64,000 nt of DNA from a phage, in NCBI GenBank assembly GCA_024682255.1, contig GCA_024682255.1_4716.1; one strand, 5' to 3'. Every line of letters begins with the position of its first letter. The first letter of the stretch is position 1. The notes beneath the pieces are model-generated. The model had not been told where the DNA came from. It did no database searches and saw only the letters and a program-made list of their open reading frames with translations. Positions 2,162 to 58,681 of this stretch are shown here, piece by piece. The translations under genes and the position numbers were made by a program.

Positions 2162-3646
2162 TTACCCTTTAGCTAATTTATTTAAGTATCTGAAATCCCA
2201 CTTATCTTTGCGTCTATTTTCGCACTTAATAGCTTGGTTCTTTATTCTCCAAGCCACCTTTGTTTTAGGTAATTGGCTGTAATTGGCCGCTGACGCAGTA
2301 CCTAAAACAACGGTTACGGTACCATCGGGTTTAGTAATCTCTACAGCGCGATAATGCTTACGTAACACATTACGCCAATATTCACGGCGTTCTGGCTCAG
2401 CATACTCAAGCATATAACCGTTGGTATCGACCAGACCGTAACACTCGTTTAAACGAGAGGTAGCGGCCGGTCTACTAATACCGATTGCTTTAGCCGCGTC
2501 AACCACGGTTTTATACGGGGTTTCATTACCGTCTCTATCTACAACCACAATAAAATCTGGACGCGAATCGAGCAGCTGCTGTCTTCGTTCAAGGGCTTGT
2601 TGATGAAGCACCTTGTTAACATGTTCGAACCCGTAACCTTCTGGACCGCGCCACCCTGGATTGTTATTCGCTCGATAAAGTACCGTCGCTGATTTCACTC
2701 CAGTCTGACGTGACGCCTCGTTTGCACTATGAACAACCGTGGTAGAGCCGTCAGGGTGATATATCCGTATCTGGTTCATTATACCGGAACCAACAAAATT
2801 ACCATCAGCTGATTTAATATCCGGCCATGGTTGAGGATTATCCTTGAATTTAACCACCCAACGACTGTTAAACAATTTGACTTTCCGGGCATGTTTACCC
2901 ATTGTCGTATCCGTAACACCAGCTACAACAGAGGCTTGCGTGATACTCAGGTACTCAGTAACGGTATCGTCCCATGTATCCCAGAGCAGAACCGGTTTAT
3001 TGTCGTCGCGTAAACCGTGTTCGATAGCATGCAGGACATTACGACTTCTGGTTGCCCATTCAAGGTTGTCAAGAGAATAGTTCCACTTATCGGCATCAAG
3101 ATGGTTAACGTCCATCCTATCGACATCGGCTGGATACTCTCTCCACGCCAGCATTAGACAACGGTGTAATACCTTGCTACCGGCCTTCTGGCGACAATCA
3201 TGTTTCAAGCAGACAGTAACGTAACGGTTCGTTACGAAACACGGGCGACAAATGCTCCCGTCTTTTCTGTCCCTGATATCACCTACTTCGTTTATTACAT
3301 ATCTCGTCAGTCCTGGAATAACGCGATAGCCAGGATACTTAGCGATTTCATAAGCGGGCTCGAACCGATAGGATAAATTATCAACATCCCAGTTAGATTC
3401 GTCACCATCAACAAACATCGCTTTGACGTATTTCTGTGTTTCAATATCAACCAGGATGTTTTTGTGTGCGATACAAATCAATGCTGGGATATTGAATTCG
3501 CGACCGGCTAAGATAACCGTGTCGCCATCTCTCGGTACCTCGACGTGGGTATCGCGATACCGCAAGTTTCCATAGCCGTCTATTTCAATCCAGCTTAGAA
3601 ACGGAATAGATATAAATTCTTTTTCAGATACTCGCCATTTAAACAT
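2162..3646 (-). CDS. HNH homing endonuclease (intron-encoded)
   Basis: Track ORF, 494 aa; HNH_3-type motif VNHLDADKWNYSLDNLEWATRSRNVLHAIEHG; ATG with AGGGG SD; lies between the 5' splice site and the ribozyme core. Confidence 0.85.
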   Translation of the reverse strand: MFKWRVSEKEFISIPFLSWIEIDGYGNLRYRDTHVEVPRDGDTVILAGREFNIPALICIAHKNILVDIETQKYVKAMFVDGDESNWDVDNLSYRFEPAYEIAKYPGYRVIPGLTRYVINEVGDIRDRKDGSICRPCFVTNRYVTVCLKHDCRQKAGSKVLHRCLMLAWREYPADVDRMDVNHLDADKWNYSLDNLEWATRSRNVLHAIEHGLRDDNKPVLLWDTWDDTVTEYLSITQASVVAGVTDTTMGKHARKVKLFNSRWVVKFKDNPQPWPDIKSADGNFVGSGIMNQIRIYHPDGSTTVVHSANEASRQTGVKSATVLYRANNNPGWRGPEGYGFEHVNKVLHQQALERRQQLLDSRPDFIVVVDRDGNETPYKTVVDAAKAIGISRPAATSRLNECYGLVDTNGYMLEYAEPERREYWRNVLRKHYRAVEITKPDGTVTVVLGTASAANYSQLPKTKVAWRIKNQAIKCENRRKDKWDFRYLNKLAKG

Positions 3647-16580: not shown

Positions 16581-16635
16581 AAGGTAACGTTTACGTCACC
16601 TCCATGACAGTCATCATGAAGGTAATATAGTCCTG
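16581..16635. promoter_or_regulatory. promoter-like motif copy 1: AAGGTAACGTTTACG ... CATCATGAAGGTAATATAGTCC
   Basis: 19-mer CATCATGAAGGTAATATAG is identical to the copy at ~42285; lies in the divergent region between 16016..16531 (-) and 16664..17293 (+). Confidence 0.45.
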
Positions 16636-27173: not shown

Positions 27174-27179
27174 CATATT

Positions 27180-27998: not shown

Positions 27999-28433
27999 TT
28001 ATGTTTTAATATGCACATCGTCAATCCCCTCGGTAATCCAGCCGATGGGAAGGACAATCGTTGTTATCGTGTTATGGGTGTAATGATTGAGAAAATGGAA
28101 ATAGTAATTTTTGTTAGACTGTTCAATCCGCAGGTCGAGGTGCGCGTCTTCAGGTAACCGTAACCATGCACCGTACAGTTCATTAAACTTACGCTGAATT
28201 TTACCGGGGTTCATTGGAACCCCACGACCACGACGATGTAGCTGACGTAATGATTCAATCAAACACTCAGAGATACCCGTTGTCGTTCCGTTATCGCTTG
28301 TATCAATAACGATGAACTCTCGTGACCCACGACCGAGATAAAAGCCAGCGACAAAAGCTGCAGCAACAAAAATTATCGTACCGATACCAATATACCAATA
28401 GTAAGTATCCATAACGACCTCACTTATACCCAA
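27999..28433 (-). CDS. membrane protein (N-terminal TM helix)
   Basis: Track ORF, 144 aa; YYWYIGIGTIIFVAAAFVAGFYLG. Confidence 0.5.
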   Translation of the reverse strand: MGISEVVMDTYYWYIGIGTIIFVAAAFVAGFYLGRGSREFIVIDTSDNGTTTGISECLIESLRQLHRRGRGVPMNPGKIQRKFNELYGAWLRLPEDAHLDLRIEQSNKNYYFHFLNHYTHNTITTIVLPIGWITEGIDDVHIKT

Positions 28434-28999
28434 TAATCGGCAAGCGGTTTTACCTTATTAATGGGCAACTGTACTTTACCGATGTTCTCTACACCCGCAT
28501 CCGCGTAGAGAACAATTTTATCGTCGTCTCTTTCCCAACGAATAATGAATCGACCAGGAAGAAGATTACTCTGTTCAAGAGACGCAGTAACCTGTTGTGT
28601 TAATACAGACAACCAAGCAGGCATCAGTGTTGCAATGTCTAAGTCATTTGACCATTCAGCACGTTGCTCCACTGGGCGTAACATACGTTCGACGGTGCGT
28701 TGAACCGTTGCGGTGATATAGCCTTTATCTTCGTCACTGATTGGATCAGGGCGAGACACGAAACGTTCAGCAGGTTTACGGGAAATATGCTCATGTAAAT
28801 CGATGAGTGGTGTTGTCATAGTACTCGCTCCATCAGAATGTAATTGGGTAACCCGTAGGGTTGTCTGCATGCTATTCAGAAGCGCAAAAGCGCCATAAAC
28901 AACAACGATACCAAGTATAGCCAAAACAGAAATCATTAACGTGTATTGCATTGTCATCTCCCCTACATACGCATCTTGAAGATCGGTTAAAAACAACAA
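28424..28999 (-). CDS. membrane protein (N-terminal TM helix)
   Basis: Track ORF, 191 aa; MQYTLMISVLAILGIVVVYGAFALL. Confidence 0.5.
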   Translation of the reverse strand: MLFLTDLQDAYVGEMTMQYTLMISVLAILGIVVVYGAFALLNSMQTTLRVTQLHSDGASTMTTPLIDLHEHISRKPAERFVSRPDPISDEDKGYITATVQRTVERMLRPVEQRAEWSNDLDIATLMPAWLSVLTQQVTASLEQSNLLPGRFIIRWERDDDKIVLYADAGVENIGKVQLPINKVKPLADYWV

Positions 29000-29052: not shown

Positions 29053-29709
29053 TCAGCTTGCAGCTTCTTCATTTGTATCAGGTTTGCTTCCCCCTAACAA
29101 ACCGTCAAATAGACCCGTATGTTTCAGGTAGAAGAGAGCGATAGCGCCCATTGCTGCTGCGCTCGTCGCCGTTAACGCAACCCCAGCACGATACTGCCAT
29201 TTACGGTCAGGCTTTTGATCAAGCGCCATACGTCGCATGTATTCAGCCTCTGCTTCATTCCGATGAATTTCGGATTCAGCCAAGCGGGCTAAGGTATCGC
29301 GGTCAAGGTTATCATAACGTACGTTCATGGTGGTTTCCTCTTGTTTGGAAGTTGATTGCTTAGTGGATTCTTGGTCAACAGTCGTTTCAGTTGGTTCAAA
29401 CGGCTGGTTGTTCATTTTCTGATCTTTATTGGTCATGATAGACTCCTTCGATTTTTGAGACGAAATTGATTTAAACCATCGTGGATGGCGGTATTCAGTT
29501 TTACATGTACAGTTAAGTTTCTCGTGCAGAAAAGCGTAAAAACGTTTTGCGCCTACACGTAAGGCTTTCAGCATTACCCATCCACGAGCACTCAAACGGT
29601 GTAGCTGTTGCGGTATGTCTAGTTTCCTAGCCAAGCGAAAGTATCTTTCAATCACTTCGATAGGAAACCATTGTTGTTCCACATCGGTGAGACTGAAAGT
29701 CTTATCCAT
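29053..29709 (-). CDS. hypothetical protein with C-terminal TM anchor
   Basis: Track ORF, 218 aa; C-terminal AGVALTATSAAAMGAIALFYL. Confidence 0.55.
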   Translation of the reverse strand: MDKTFSLTDVEQQWFPIEVIERYFRLARKLDIPQQLHRLSARGWVMLKALRVGAKRFYAFLHEKLNCTCKTEYRHPRWFKSISSQKSKESIMTNKDQKMNNQPFEPTETTVDQESTKQSTSKQEETTMNVRYDNLDRDTLARLAESEIHRNEAEAEYMRRMALDQKPDRKWQYRAGVALTATSAAAMGAIALFYLKHTGLFDGLLGGSKPDTNEEAAS

Positions 29710-29734: not shown

Positions 29735-29757
29735 ACTTAAGTAATATAGCCGTGAAA
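29735..29757. promoter_or_regulatory. promoter-like motif copy 2: CTTAAGTAATATAGCCGTGAAA
   Basis: Shares GTAATATAGCCGTGAAA with the copy at ~42294; 31 nt from the ATG of 29053..29709 (-) and ~110 nt from the ATG of 29860..30636 (+). Confidence 0.4.
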
Positions 29758-29859
29758 AATGATGGAATAAGTTAAATACCGCAACCGCCGCTAATTTTAT
29801 AGGCTTTTAGCCTAAACCAATCATCTTCGGAATCATCATCTTTGAAACAGGAACCTATC

Positions 29860-30636
29860 ATGGAAAAAGTATTTGTTTGTAAGTTGTTTACCAACGGCAA
29901 TAGCCAACCAATGTATCTGACCGATCCTGTTCTAGGTAATCGGAACAGTACCGTATTCAAAGAAGCTTTCGAATACGCTAAAAATAAAGCCGTGAGAACA
30001 CTGACGTCCGATGACTGTATCAATGGTATCACGTGGGCAGAGTTATTAGGTGATGCTGTTAGACACTTCGTTCGGGATGCAAGAAAACAGGAAATCGGTC
30101 TCACGACTATCGTTGTGCATGAAAACGCAGAAATTTTATCAAACGTTTTGGTTGATTTTAATGACGTTTGCGTGTTTAATCCAGAGAACACGTTTGAACA
30201 ATACCTTACTGCCCTGAACAACCAACTCGGTAAAGATATTCATCCCGAATTCGCCAAGTTAACGTATCAGGTACTTTTTGATAACGTCGATCCAAATACG
30301 AAGATCAATACCAGCACGTCACACCTGGTAAAGAAATACGGATCGGTTTTGGATAATCCATTAAAAGAACAAGAGCCTACTGGGGTTAGGGCGGTACATC
30401 ACAACCTCGTCGTTAAATCTGATGGATGCGATGAACATTACGCTATGATAAACGATGAAAACAATTACCGTTTAAGTCAAGCGATTGGTGTTCTACGCTA
30501 TACCGAACCCACTGTTGTAGACGATTATACATCGACAACAACACACACCACGTGTTTCATTTTCATCTATCCCAATGAAAGTGTATACATTACTGACTGC
30601 TATGGCAATACCGTAGATAGCTTACGTCGTTATTAA
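29860..30636 (+). CDS. hypothetical protein
   Basis: Track ORF 29842..30636 (TTG); in-frame ATG at 29860 preferred. Confidence 0.6.
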   Translation: MEKVFVCKLFTNGNSQPMYLTDPVLGNRNSTVFKEAFEYAKNKAVRTLTSDDCINGITWAELLGDAVRHFVRDARKQEIGLTTIVVHENAEILSNVLVDFNDVCVFNPENTFEQYLTALNNQLGKDIHPEFAKLTYQVLFDNVDPNTKINTSTSHLVKKYGSVLDNPLKEQEPTGVRAVHHNLVVKSDGCDEHYAMINDENNYRLSQAIGVLRYTEPTVVDDYTSTTTHTTCFIFIYPNESVYITDCYGNTVDSLRRY

Positions 30637-30642
30637 TCATCA

Positions 30643-30670
30643 AGCCTGTCCTTCGGGGCAGGCTTTTATG
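30643..30670 (+). terminator. rho-independent-type terminator AGCCTGTCC-TTCG-GGGCAGGCT + TTTTATG
   Basis: UUCG-tetraloop hairpin 7 nt after stop, followed by T-run. Confidence 0.65.
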
Positions 30671-30744
30671 CTGTTAAATATCAGGAATAAGAATTAACAA
30701 AATAGGAAAATGGTGTGAATATAACACAAAGGAGGGAGATGATT

Positions 30745-30861
30745 ATGTTACTCATTCTAATGGAGAGAGCGTTGCTGGCGGGTATCTGCGCATTCTCTGT
30801 TAAACACGCTGTTGCTATCATGGCTGAAGAAAGGCGTAATACGCATAATGTATTACGCTGA
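30745..30861 (+). CDS. small hydrophobic peptide (38 aa), not in ORF track
   Basis: Strong SD AAGGAGGGAG, then ATG 8 nt downstream; encodes MLLILMERALLAGICAFSVKHAVAIMAEERRNTHNVLR; single predicted TM helix. Confidence 0.35.
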   Translation: MLLILMERALLAGICAFSVKHAVAIMAEERRNTHNVLR

Positions 30862-30971
30862 AAACACTGTGTGCATTAGTGTATGACGAGAAATCGTCGA
30901 GGCCCCCGTCTTCACGAGGGCCAACACCTATGCATGATTATTCATCGTCTGTTAAACAAAAGGTTATAAAC

Positions 30972-31280
30972 ATGAGCAATTTGAACGTTGAATTTACTTC
31001 AACAACGCCTGTCATGAATGGTGTTGGCACTGAAACCAAAATCGTATTAGAACCCATTCCAGGGTTACGTGATCTCGGTGATTTTTATCCACTGATGCCG
31101 CGTATACGGAAGGCCTTAAACAGTATCGATCTTGATTCTAATAAAGATTTCCAACACGATACAGAAAATACCGATCATGTGTTGCTACCGTCAGGGATCG
31201 CAAAATTCACCTACACGCAAACATTGAAAGCCTCCGATGGTGAAATCCGTCGTTTTATCGTTGAAGTAGAAAGCGCATAA
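30972..31280 (+). CDS. hypothetical protein
   Basis: Track ORF 30879..31280 (GTG start overlapping a GC hairpin); internal ATG at 30972 chosen; start uncertain. Confidence 0.45.
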   Translation: MSNLNVEFTSTTPVMNGVGTETKIVLEPIPGLRDLGDFYPLMPRIRKALNSIDLDSNKDFQHDTENTDHVLLPSGIAKFTYTQTLKASDGEIRRFIVEVESA

Positions 31281-31284
31281 AAAC

Positions 31285-31316
31285 CATCCTCCCAACCCGT
31301 AAGGGAAGGGAGGATG
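31285..31316. terminator. GGAGG-family hairpin CATCCTCCC-AA-CCC-GTAA-GGG-AA-GGGAGGATG between convergent genes
   Basis: Inverted repeat between stops at 31280 (+) and 31334 (-). Confidence 0.55.
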
Positions 31317-31333
31317 AAATATGCCGTTAAACG

Positions 31334-31963
31334 TTATTCAACAAACCCCGCATTCAACAGATTGTCGTAAACACGATTAGCGACATCAACAGGAGAATGT
31401 GTGTTACTGGTATCTATACACAACGTTTTCGCGTCGCCGAGATAGTCCATAAAATCCATGTAACGATAACGTCGTTTATTGAATGTCGCTTCATCGATGT
31501 TATCAAACATCTGATGTTTAGCATGACGAACACGGAACCGTCTTAAATACGTAGGATAGTCAATATCCAGATAAACATAGTAAGACGGCATGATAATAGA
31601 CGGTAAGTTCGGCAACAACGCATCAAACAACTTAACGTTAGCATCATTAACCTGATAAACGTACGTCGAAGCAATCGAACGATCGCTAAGCACAGTCTTC
31701 CCTTCGTTAAGGGCTGGATGAATCACCTTGTTGAAGAGATGATTGCGTTGCGACATCATCGCCAATAGTTCGGTTTCTGGATCGAATCTGTTCGTTGGCG
31801 TCTGATCTTCCAGGATAAGTTTACGAATCGCTTCTCCGTAGAGTGTACCACCGGGTTCACGTACGACGCAGACGTTGTTTAAACGACTGTGTAAAGACGA
31901 GATAACCGAACTCTTTCCTGAATAATCCAGGCCTTCAATAACGATATATTTATTACGAGACAT
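31334..31963 (-). CDS. tmk: thymidylate kinase
   Basis: Track ORF 31334..31975 (TTG); start moved to ATG 31961-31963. KYIVIEGLDYSGKSS (cf. E. coli KYIVIEGLEGAGKTT), REPGGT, DR motif. Confidence 0.85.
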   Translation of the reverse strand: MSRNKYIVIEGLDYSGKSSVISSLHSRLNNVCVVREPGGTLYGEAIRKLILEDQTPTNRFDPETELLAMMSQRNHLFNKVIHPALNEGKTVLSDRSIASTYVYQVNDANVKLFDALLPNLPSIIMPSYYVYLDIDYPTYLRRFRVRHAKHQMFDNIDEATFNKRRYRYMDFMDYLGDAKTLCIDTSNTHSPVDVANRVYDNLLNAGFVE

Positions 31964-31979: not shown

Positions 31980-33257
31980 CTATTTCGTTTTTGCCGTCAG
32001 CGGCTGCGATACCGTAATCTCCACCCGATCGACATCGGTACGTTTAACGATGATAAGGCTACGTTCATCACCGAATGGTTCTGAGACCTTACAAGCCTCT
32101 TTAAGATTTTCGAGAATCGTGCCATGGGGTTCAAACACCGCAAAACCGGAACTAGCATCGATTCTTATTAGACTTACACGCGTGCCGTTTACGGTGATGG
32201 TGTCATCCGTCTTGAATTCACAACAGGAGGGTAGGCGGAACTGACCATTAACGCAATTAGCTAAGTATGCCTCACCACCAAACATTTCTATTAATGTCAC
32301 CGGTTTGAATGTTTTCTCTGGGAAAGCATTATTAAGAATATCGTTTCCATTCACGAACCAGATCGTTACTTTATCTTCGGAATACGCTAGTCTGTACGGT
32401 TGGGTTGCGGACGCTTGCGCTTTATGCTGGTTAAATAACTTTGATTTTGTCGCAATCGCAGCACGACCTTCGGCGTCGAAGTACAGAACTTCATATCCTA
32501 CACATCCGATAAACACGCGACGGTTATTAAGTTCCGGAATTCTGACTAATAATGCTTCACCGTTGTATCCAGTAGGAACAATACCACGTAGGATGATAGA
32601 TTCATTGTTCAATACCGAATTTTTCATGGTGATGCTTCGCATTATCGCTGGCGTCACTATTTTATCTTCGACAGGTTCAAGCTGCTCTGCTGTTACAGTC
32701 ATGGATCTGTCTTCGTTTTCAACCGACCGATTAAAGACTATTTTATTAAGACAAACAATCGGTAGAATCCGGTCTACACACACGGTCTCATCGAAATGTG
32801 CAGGAAAGCGAAAAATATACGGAACAAAAACATCAATATCGTCGGTTGCTTTTTCAAGCATATTAGCATATTCAACTGCTTTAGAACGACCGTTGAGAAG
32901 AATAACCGCATAGATAACACTATCTTCCAACCATGCGCGGGTCGTACGCCCGATAATACGATTGGTGTCTATTTCAGCGCGCTGAGACTCCGGCGACCAC
33001 TTTACTGAGTTGACACCATCTACAACCACGTCGGCACCATCATCACACAAACTTCGTATGAACCGACTGACGGTCGCTGCATCGATCTGAATCCCAGCAA
33101 CCTCAATTTTCATCAATGGGATAACAAACTCATTATTACCGCACTTCTTTGCTCCGCGAATAATAGGAGTACTCTTCTTGTTTTCACCCGACCCCCAGAT
33201 AACTTTAGTCATTTTCTGTTTCCTTCTGAGTTTTGTACTAAGCTCTGACGACATCAT
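31980..33257 (-). CDS. hypothetical protein
   Basis: Track ORF, 425 aa; no recognisable motif. Confidence 0.6.
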   Translation of the reverse strand: MMSSELSTKLRRKQKMTKVIWGSGENKKSTPIIRGAKKCGNNEFVIPLMKIEVAGIQIDAATVSRFIRSLCDDGADVVVDGVNSVKWSPESQRAEIDTNRIIGRTTRAWLEDSVIYAVILLNGRSKAVEYANMLEKATDDIDVFVPYIFRFPAHFDETVCVDRILPIVCLNKIVFNRSVENEDRSMTVTAEQLEPVEDKIVTPAIMRSITMKNSVLNNESIILRGIVPTGYNGEALLVRIPELNNRRVFIGCVGYEVLYFDAEGRAAIATKSKLFNQHKAQASATQPYRLAYSEDKVTIWFVNGNDILNNAFPEKTFKPVTLIEMFGGEAYLANCVNGQFRLPSCCEFKTDDTITVNGTRVSLIRIDASSGFAVFEPHGTILENLKEACKVSEPFGDERSLIIVKRTDVDRVEITVSQPLTAKTK

Positions 33258-42166: not shown

Positions 42167-43047
42167 CTAAAAAGTTCCTCTGTTTCACGTTAATTAAACA
42201 ACGTATTGATTTCTGGTAACGATAACAATCCTAGTGATGTTATCAAAAAGGTAACGCTTACGCGTCGCGTTCATGATGCCATGCATCATGAAGGTAATAT
42301 AGCCGTGAAAGGATTTGTGTTACAGAAAGGGTTTTGTTGTTTTTAAGAAGAGATGGATTTAGAAGAGGTGTTGCAAGCAAGGAAGGTAAACGAGGATAGG
42401 TATTTTGATTTAAGTAAGTAAGATGTTATCTGTATTCGTTAAAAATGTATTGTCTAAGTTATCTTGTTTATCTTAGGTTATGTCTTATTGTTTAATCGTT
42501 TAATATTTTTATCTAAGTAGGTTTAACTCTATCTTGTTTGTATATTTAAATTAATTTAAAGTAGATCAATAAGCTTATCTTCAAAACAATGGATAACATG
42601 TGTTTACTACCTTAACGGTAACACATGTCATCTGTGCATTCACTCCGTTATCACTTCGTTACATGCTTATCAACGTTTTGTCTTCACAAAACGTTCAACT
42701 CAAAAAACCATTTGTGATACTCTTCTTCACGTTGTTCATCAGAGTATCTCGTCTATACTCATTGCATTCGTATACGACATAACCGTTATACGCTAACGCT
42801 ACGCTTATAGCTTGATAACTCTAAGGATAAAAACATAAACTCGCTTCGCTCGTTTAGTTTTTCTTTTTCTTAGAGTTATCCTGTTGCTCGTCTCTAAAGG
42901 ACTTCGCTCCTCCCCCGTCCCCCGAAGGGGCCGAGGTCGTGGAAATTTTACTTTCCAAATACATTTACAACATCTGTAAACTTTTACTCCAGGTACTTAA
43001 TCTTATCATTAGAAATTATAAAAGAGAAGAATAAACACAAACATAAA
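42167..43047. other. AT-rich gene-free region (~0.9 kb) with TTATCTT-type repeats
   Basis: No ORF with SD. Repeated TTATCTT/TTATCTA units (~42459-42540); promoter-like motif copy 3 at ~42248-42310; hairpin AACGTTTTG-tcttca-CAAAACGTT (~42672-42695); CCCC-UUCG-GGGG hairpin on minus strand (~42915-42930). Confidence 0.5.
42248..42310. promoter_or_regulatory. promoter-like motif copy 3: AAGGTAACGCTTACG ... CATCATGAAGGTAATATAGCCGTGAAA
   Basis: Same bipartite motif as copy 1; ~127 nt from the ATG of 41384..42166 (-). Confidence 0.45.
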
Positions 43048-57733: not shown

Positions 57734-58681
57734 TTAGCCTTGTTCTTCTGGAGAACGACCCTGGAGGCTTGCGGTATGTCCGTCGACATTGTAATAGAAA
57801 ATCAATGGACCGCCAACGGCAGTACAGTAGTTTTCATCCAGACTGATCTCGATACCGTATTGGTAACCTGCTCTTGCTGGAATACGTCCGCCTAACTCAC
57901 CGTTGAAAGCCACTTTAGCATTATACAGGTTATACGGTGCGGCGTTGTCGTCTAATACCCAACGATCGGTAGTCATTTCAGCCAGAAGATCGGCGACCAC
58001 CACATCGCTAATAACGGTACCTGTTACCAGCGAAGCCAGCAGTTCACCGTAATCAGAAGTATCACGACTGTAACTGTAGATCTCGCCGCTAGCGCGTACG
58101 CCTTGACCGAAGAACTTAAGACCATCCAGCTCTTTGATCGCGATAATATCATCAAGATTCGGTACACGCGACTTCATCAAGATACGAACGCTCCCCGTCC
58201 AAGCCAGGCAGCTAGATGAAACACGAAGCAATTGTCCGTTAACGGTATCCCAGCTAAGTTCGTCGTTGACGATTTCTTCCGCGGTAAGGCCAAGACCGAA
58301 ACGTTCTTTGATGATAGGCCAGATATCACGCATCTTGGTAGCGTCTGGCGCATCGATAAGAATAGGCGCTACGTTACGCAGATACGCACCGATGTTAATA
58401 CGATCGTAATACAGCGTCGTCGAACCTTCATAATCGTCTAACTCGGTAAGCTTAGCGGTTGCCGTTGCCGTAATCTGGGTGTCGCGCTCATAGGCGCTTT
58501 GGTTGGTGGTTGGTGTTCCTAAAACCAATAATTCAGGGGTTAGAACATGCTCTCCGTTCTGAGGTGGGTTATCGTGGTTGATAAGACCATACACGAGATC
58601 GGATGAGGGTAAAGAGACGTCGACCGGGTAAAGTTCGGTGTCGTCAATAATTGTTACCGTATCACTCACGGTGACCTCCAC
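57734..58681 (-). CDS. paralog-family protein, function unknown
   Basis: Track ORF, 315 aa; motifs YERDTQ, LYYDRINI, LAWTGSV, ENYCTAVGG. Confidence 0.6.
   Translation of the reverse strand: MEVTVSDTVTIIDDTELYPVDVSLPSSDLVYGLINHDNPPQNGEHVLTPELLVLGTPTTNQSAYERDTQITATATAKLTELDDYEGSTTLYYDRINIGAYLRNVAPILIDAPDATKMRDIWPIIKERFGLGLTAEEIVNDELSWDTVNGQLLRVSSSCLAWTGSVRILMKSRVPNLDDIIAIKELDGLKFFGQGVRASGEIYSYSRDTSDYGELLASLVTGTVISDVVVADLLAEMTTDRWVLDDNAAPYNLYNAKVAFNGELGGRIPARAGYQYGIEISLDENYCTAVGGPLIFYYNVDGHTASLQGRSPEEQG

Follow-up and report, generated by a model that had tools for sequence, protein, structure and literature searches.

The gp006 locus and its neighbours

Between positions 30637 and 30971 of the window, the whole 64,000-nucleotide stretch of phage DNA analysed here, lie a terminator, a 38-codon open reading frame (ORF) preceded by a Shine-Dalgarno (SD) sequence, and a structured RNA element that ends shortly before the next gene. 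Escherichia phage vB_EcoM_Goslar, a nucleus-forming jumbo phage of the Chimalliviridae (genus Goslarvirus), is the closest known relative of this region: Megablast of 29800-31400 aligned it over its full length with the Goslar genome (MK327938 / NC_048170) at 97.1% identity and returned no other match from the phage collection. Window position 30637 corresponds to Goslar position 3501. The window belongs to the same phage group as Goslar, as a further isolate or a metagenomic member.

The ORF occupies 30745-30861 on the plus strand, with its ATG at 30745 and a TGA stop at 30859-30861. Its translation on direct reading is MLLILMERALLAGICAFSVKHAVAIMAEERRNTHNVLR, an exact match to the peptide given in an earlier sequence-only reading of this DNA, which also placed the ORF after a UUCG-loop terminator. 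That reading called the gene unannotated, which is wrong: the same ORF stands in GenBank and RefSeq as gene gp006 of Goslar (Goslar_00006 / HOV27_gp006, "hypothetical protein"; QBO63799.1, YP_009820691.1, UniRef100_A0A482GK72). The window peptide is identical to QBO63799.1 over all 38 aa, and the DNA differs by one synonymous change. The gene is thus already in the public record, at GenBank, RefSeq and UniRef, with no assigned function; Goslar gene names are used in what follows.

Synteny is the same in the window and in Goslar, running gp005, terminator, gp006, gp007 and a convergent thymidylate kinase (Tmk) gene. The only plus-strand genes of the region are gp005, gp006 and gp007, and minus-strand genes flank them on either side. 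All loci that show both flanks have this gene order, and gp005 is missing only in lineage L008 (2633-3001; ENA ERZ28649724 scaffold_1), where almost all of it is deleted but its terminator and the two genes that follow are retained, which makes gp005 a dispensable gene or, at the least, a variable one. Goslar genes within about 3 kb of gp006 encode hypothetical proteins, thymidylate kinase and a RuvC-like resolvase, and no lysis gene (endolysin, spanin) is annotated within +/-3 kb.

Downstream, gp007 (102 aa, 30972-31280, plus strand) is an ORFan that always co-occurs with gp006. Its AlphaFold (AF2) model has a pLDDT of 81, and a PDB fold search with this model gave no significant match. An in-frame ATG at 30930 would extend it to 116 aa and is used by gene callers in some contigs; we place the start at 30972 because a 1-nt indel in an A run at 30958 breaks the 30930 frame in Goslar and many other lineages. 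A tblastn search of phage genomes with gp007 found Goslar only, and one with gp005 found only very weak Erwinia-phage matches; with no clear distant syntenic relatives from either search, gp006 is untraceable beyond Goslar-like phages.

Several observations concern the surrounding genes. The C-terminal ~60 residues of gp005 (29842-30636, plus strand) match phrog_17697 and phrog_1453, both of unknown function, with E about 5e-8, and the C-terminal part of the protein also gives a weak match to 'goF mRNA metabolism modulator' (E = 0.02). On the minus strand, the gp003 homolog (28424-28957) has an apparent N-terminal hydrophobic segment and the gp004 homolog (29053-29709) an apparent C-terminal one, both seen by eye; accessory proteins associated with the membrane may be common at this locus. 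A PHROG endolysin match of gp004 is not significant (E = 0.52). Further downstream, the homolog of Goslar gp009 (425 aa, 31980-33257, minus strand) is hypervariable between lineages in its N-terminal half (~32540-33250), differing from Goslar at up to 43 positions in 60 nt, with lineage L009 close to the window. The pattern resembles an exchange of two or more alleles by recombination.

The terminator of gp005 follows its TAA stop (30634-30636) at 30642-30669 on the plus strand. Direct reading and folding give a 10-bp stem with a UUCG loop (30642-30665), then a U tract, TTTTAT in the DNA. The Goslar counterpart is annotated as a terminator at 3508-3527 (-18.8 kcal/mol), and the stem is invariant across relatives, so this part of the sequence-only reading stands. 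A simple terminator scan of the window did not flag it, maybe because T4 rather than T5 follows the stem in the window copy.

From alignment and lists of variable sites, a conserved block of 45 nt (30684-30728, plus strand) directly precedes the SD sequence, and its first part, 30684-30702, shows no variation in the 12 sequences that were aligned across it. The block could be a promoter or 5′ UTR. It contains no TATATTAC early-promoter-like core, and a promoter scan found no sigma-70 promoter upstream of gp006. Elsewhere in the window the motif GGCTATATTAC precedes gp004 (29741, minus strand) and is likewise found upstream of 16016(-) and 41384(-), and the motif (c)acGGCTATATTACyTT is seen in spacers before leftward genes at 16622-16629, 29741-29748 and 42294-42301 (minus strand). 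TATATTA is enriched 17-fold in upstream spacers. Jumbo phages have a conserved AT-rich early promoter motif of ~10 nt, used by the virion RNA polymerase, upstream of early operons (PMC7598289), and by analogy the TATATTA motif is probably the core of the Goslar early (virion RNA polymerase) promoter. Neither GGCTATATTAC nor TATATTA occurs upstream of gp006. The late promoter core of phiKZ is 5′-T(-3)ATG(+1)-3′, a TATG overlapping the transcription start (PMC7598289). Two TATG copies, at 30667-30670 and 30928-30931, are invariant, which is a lead only, as a 4-nt motif is not diagnostic. A shared GGAATAAG in the upstream regions of gp005 and gp006 was dismissed as coincidence, the gp005 copy not being conserved in relatives.

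The SD sequence itself, AAGGAGGGAG, was read directly at 30729-30738 on the plus strand. Its GGAGG core (30731-30735) is 9 nt from the gp006 ATG, a normal spacing; counted from the end of the 10-mer, the ATG follows after 6 nt (ATGATT) and not after 8 nt as first given. The description of a strong ribosome-binding site is borne out, and the site is conserved: a GGAG-containing purine run is retained in most relatives, with weakened forms in two lineages (AGAGGAGAGAG in L006 and AAAAGAGGGAA in L031). By folding, it falls within a weak local hairpin and is not strongly sequestered. GGAGG followed 4-10 nt on by ATG nevertheless has 17 occurrences in the window, mostly inside terminator palindromes. 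Such pairs were seen on both strands of short GC-rich intergenic palindromes, at 27176/27214, 31278/31321 and 55006/55044; the palindrome at 31281-31333 lies between convergent genes. Another site, at 57776, opens a 39-codon ORF within an opposite-strand gene. Because the combination arises spuriously in so many palindromes, the motif alone is untrustworthy as a ribosome-binding signal in this genome. It does no better than chance, and it is conservation that marks the gp006 ORF as non-random.

Selection on the reading frame and properties of the peptide

Relatives were gathered in three ways, through gp005, through variants of the peptide and their contigs, and through gp007 in metagenomes, yielding 31 distinct sequences. 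The search for peptide homologues used a 40-aa form that begins at an upstream in-frame ATG. Conservation of the small ORF in related phages had been proposed as a check in the sequence-only reading, and the ORF is intact in 31/31 of these Goslar-like sequences, always with 38 codons and free of indels, which are present in the neighbouring spacer. The start codon is ATG in 30 sequences and GTG in one. The exact peptide was found in 433 contigs, and the index lists it in 814 collection blocks. The common alleles (A27T; A24T+A27T; M26I+A27T+R30K) all fall within positions 21-30, where variation is concentrated, and residues 1-20 and 31-38 are nearly invariant.

Segregating sites and changes were counted in the 12 sequences found independently of the peptide, since loci fetched by peptide variant are biased to non-synonymous changes. 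In this set, segregating sites at codon positions 1, 2 and 3 number 5, 2 and 13 (P = 0.004), and there are 14 synonymous to 5 non-synonymous changes, with P between 6e-6 and 3e-4 when 0.24-0.32 of changes are expected to be synonymous under neutrality. In the comparison with L033, the most divergent lineage, gp006 has a pS of 0.23, a pN of 0.034 and an omega of 0.15, and the flanking genes have a pS of 0.57-0.63. Omega is 0.15-0.30 in most pairs; the exception is L006, with about 0.9. Most relatives have diverged by only 2-7%. These alignments show purifying selection acting on the amino-acid sequence of gp006. With the ORF intact in all relatives and synonymous changes in excess, gp006 is very probably translated.

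A second frame complicates such tests. An antisense ORF of 46 codons (30681-30821, minus strand) is also intact in 31/31 sequences, and it shares its wobble positions with gp006, so that codon-position bias alone cannot fix the coding strand, a trap for tests of this kind. As a gene it was rejected: it has no SD sequence, and its stop position varies among relatives. A hand count of variable sites in its non-overlapping part gave 5, 3 and 6 by codon position, showing no third-position bias, and within the overlap the ratio of synonymous to non-synonymous changes is 12:2 in the plus frame versus 9:5 in the antisense frame. On these counts we judge the antisense ORF to be a by-product of gp006 and not a gene.

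The AlphaFold (AF2) model of gp006 is one helix spanning residues 2-37 (pLDDT 84). Residues 1-19 have a mean Kyte-Doolittle value of 1.97, and the net charge of +2 is concentrated in the C-terminal tail (EERRNTHNVLR). A simple sum on the Hessa scale comes to about +2 kcal/mol, positive because E7/R8 and K20/H21 break up the hydrophobic stretch. Of the earlier description as a single transmembrane helix with a charged tail, the predicted helix, the hydrophobicity and the basic tail hold up, but the transmembrane call is marginal, given the positive Hessa sum. Membrane insertion as predicted from these scales is plausible but marginal.

Searches with the peptide against Pfam, PHROGs, NCBIfam, PADLOC and PDB sequences gave no match, those of Pfam, NCBIfam and PADLOC being run at E <= 1-10. 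A profile search run exhaustively over 1.84 billion representative proteins returned only gp006's own cluster and one further match (E = 5e-4) in a 492-aa protein, at residues 159-180; we take this match to be a chance similarity to a hydrophobic stretch. Complete E. coli genomes and plasmids, searched for a host origin, likewise gave no match. Within the reach of these searches gp006 is a genus-restricted ORFan, without relatives beyond Goslar-like phages, and no function can therefore be transferred to it from relatives.

Conserved RNA structure at the 3′ end

The region as a whole (30637-30975) folds far better than shuffled sequences (z = -4.23), and two structures stand out at the 3′ end of gp006. 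One is a perfect hairpin of 9-11 bp at 30833-30859 (plus strand), found in the folds, which covers codons 30-38 and extends one base into the stop codon. None of the 9 sites in its stem where a synonymous change could occur varies, against 14/32 such sites in codons 2-29 (Fisher p = 0.017). The sole synonymous change in the hairpin is in the loop, and the two stem substitutions seen, C-G to U-G and G-U to A-U, keep the pairing.

The other structure is a three-way junction at 30871-30935 (plus strand), with a minimum free energy (MFE) of -29.8 kcal/mol, z = -4.06 and an MFE frequency of 22%. Its outer stem is formed by UGCAU/AUGCA plus GUGU/ACAC, and its arms are GACGA-GAAA-UCGUC and GGCCC.CGU-CUUC-ACG.GGGCC, the latter at 30901-30922. 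This second arm is the GC hairpin noted from the sequence at ~30890-30915: the hairpin exists, but it sits further downstream and is one arm of a larger element. Variable sites in 30862-30933 number 6/72, and within 30872-30933 only 30906 and 30923 vary, whereas 27 of the 38 sites in the adjacent 30934-30971 do (71%). A nearly invariant junction beside a highly variable 38 nt argues that the element is under constraint of its own.

A covariation test gave no support for RNA structure in the gp006 region; it is uninformative here because the helices do not vary. In Rfam, searched at permissive E-values with the hairpins of 30833-30935, the best matches were of 12-21 bits with E > 1, below the gathering threshold. 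Neither an unfiltered covariance model nor a BLAST self-search detected a second copy of the junction in the window. The junction element is conserved and unannotated, a new observation and a more unusual one than gp006 itself.

Synonymous divergence bears on the same question. The pS of gp006 is 2-3 times below that of the flanking genes, and together with the unusually good folding this would suggest that part of the conservation is at the level of nucleotides and not of the peptide. We downgraded this reading of the low pS because divergence is a mosaic along the region and other coding stretches, for example gp004, are equally conserved.

Interpretation of gp006 and its RNA

The explanation we prefer, with a probability of roughly 0.55, is that gp006 is a genuine, translated, lineage-restricted gene whose product is an accessory micropeptide associated with the membrane and whose 3′ region is conserved and structured. 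The peptide would form a single alpha-helix whose N-terminal 19-27 residues, which are hydrophobic, insert into the inner membrane of E. coli or associate with it. Its orientation would be N-out/C-in with the basic tail EERRNTHNVLR in the cytoplasm, as the positive-inside rule predicts from the positive charge of the tail. Its role may be an accessory one, modulating some host or phage process located at the membrane, as distinct from a core function in replication or structure. Beyond the gp005 terminator the gene would form a short expression unit of its own, gp005 being deletable without loss of gp006 and gp007, and its mRNA would end in the hairpin over the stop codon followed by the three-way junction. 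The most likely role of these 3′ hairpins would be to govern where the gp006 message ends, how stable it is or how it is processed, or else to keep it apart from that of gp007. Counting against this explanation are the high omega of L006, the wobble positions shared with the antisense ORF, the lack of an assignable promoter, the marginal transmembrane prediction, the absence of homologues that could lend it a function, and the share of the conservation that the low pS and the unusually good folding would place at the nucleotide level.

That the frame is a chance ORF in an intergenic spacer, conserved only through recent common ancestry, is highly improbable and was already disfavoured. GGAGG, ATG and a short ORF do come together elsewhere (the 39 codons at 57776), and most relatives are little diverged; yet the frame is intact where the pS of flanking genes reaches 0.57-0.63, the synonymous excess has P <= 3e-4, and the ORF is free of the indels found in the neighbouring spacer. 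An unlikely alternative, though one with more in its favour, is that the functional unit is mainly RNA, with ~30670-30935 acting as a regulatory or dual-function RNA or a cis element and the peptide secondary or incidental. The fold z-scores of the region and the junction, the near invariance of 30872-30933 beside 38 nt that vary at 71% of sites, the 0/9 synonymous-capable stem sites that vary and the low pS would all fit such a unit. The synonymous excess of 14:5 and the third-position bias, however, show selection on the reading frame, and the SD sequence and start codon are conserved as well; the structure has neither covariation support nor an Rfam family, and mosaic divergence, with gp004 equally conserved, makes the low pS weak evidence. 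Dual-function RNAs that encode a small peptide are known from SgrS/SgrT, RNAIII/hld and SR1/SR1P. Like these, gp006 would be a short transcription unit that pairs a small ORF with strongly conserved RNA structure, though one with no known target, base-pairing region or transcript boundaries. We give quite low odds to gp006 being a leader peptide, an upstream ORF whose translation through the stop-codon hairpin remodels the structure and tunes expression of gp007. It has the orientation of gp007, ends 110 nt upstream of it and always co-occurs with it, and the last stem position of the 11-bp hairpin is also the first base of its stop codon, with the conserved multi-stem element directly after. 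Purifying selection along most of the peptide speaks against this, as does the position of the gp007 ribosome-binding site and start in the variable 30934-30971, mostly unpaired in the consensus fold; lying outside the conserved structure, they are not sequestered by it. The invariant TATG at 30928-30931 could moreover be a separate start site for gp007 (motif: PMC7598289).

The sequence-only reading had compared the peptide with type I toxins and small holin- or antiholin-like peptides, and neither class found support in the family searches, the neighbouring genes, the search for an antisense promoter or the marginal transmembrane prediction. A membrane-damaging role, as a type I toxin-like peptide, holin, antiholin or lysis-timing peptide, is very unlikely. 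With type I toxins (Hok/Gef, Ldr, TisB, Ibs, ShoB, ZorO, DinQ) gp006 shares its size (below the <60 aa limit for these toxins), a predicted helix, hydrophobic and charged residues and a structured mRNA, and its Kyte-Doolittle hydrophobicity passes while its Hessa-scale sum is positive. It differs from them in matching no family in Pfam, NCBIfam or PADLOC, in belonging to an operon of a lytic jumbo phage and in having an SD sequence that is only weakly paired; no minus-strand promoter for an antisense antitoxin was found near it by a scan for sigma-70-type promoters. Phage holins and antiholins resemble gp006 in having a C-terminal tail that is basic and charged behind a hydrophobic segment. 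Here, however, the hydrophobic stretch is interrupted by the charged residues E7/R8 and K20/H21, no PHROG or Pfam lysis family is matched, and no endolysin or spanin is annotated nearby in Goslar. At 38 aa, gp006 is also shorter than known holins, to our knowledge about half the size of the smallest.

More speculatively, and with little weight attached to it, gp006 and its 3′ hairpins may form one dual-function module of Goslar-like phages, in which the micropeptide would act, for example, at the inner membrane or the early-infection vesicle and the three-way junction would carry an mRNA signal for protein binding, processing or export. A literature search found no such dual-function element described for chimalliviruses.

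As a genuine micropeptide gene, the reading that we prefer, gp006 would be of modest import in itself, since the databases already list it, as a hypothetical protein, and its relatives are confined to a single phage genus. Among the micropeptide genes of this model nucleus-forming phage of E. coli, gp006 is nevertheless one of those with the better support, its evidence being at the level of populations. Genetics in Goslar is now possible by CRISPRi-ART and antisense oligomers, which makes gp006 cheap to test. The conserved junction RNA, for its part, could bear on how Goslar-like phages define, stabilise or export their mRNAs.
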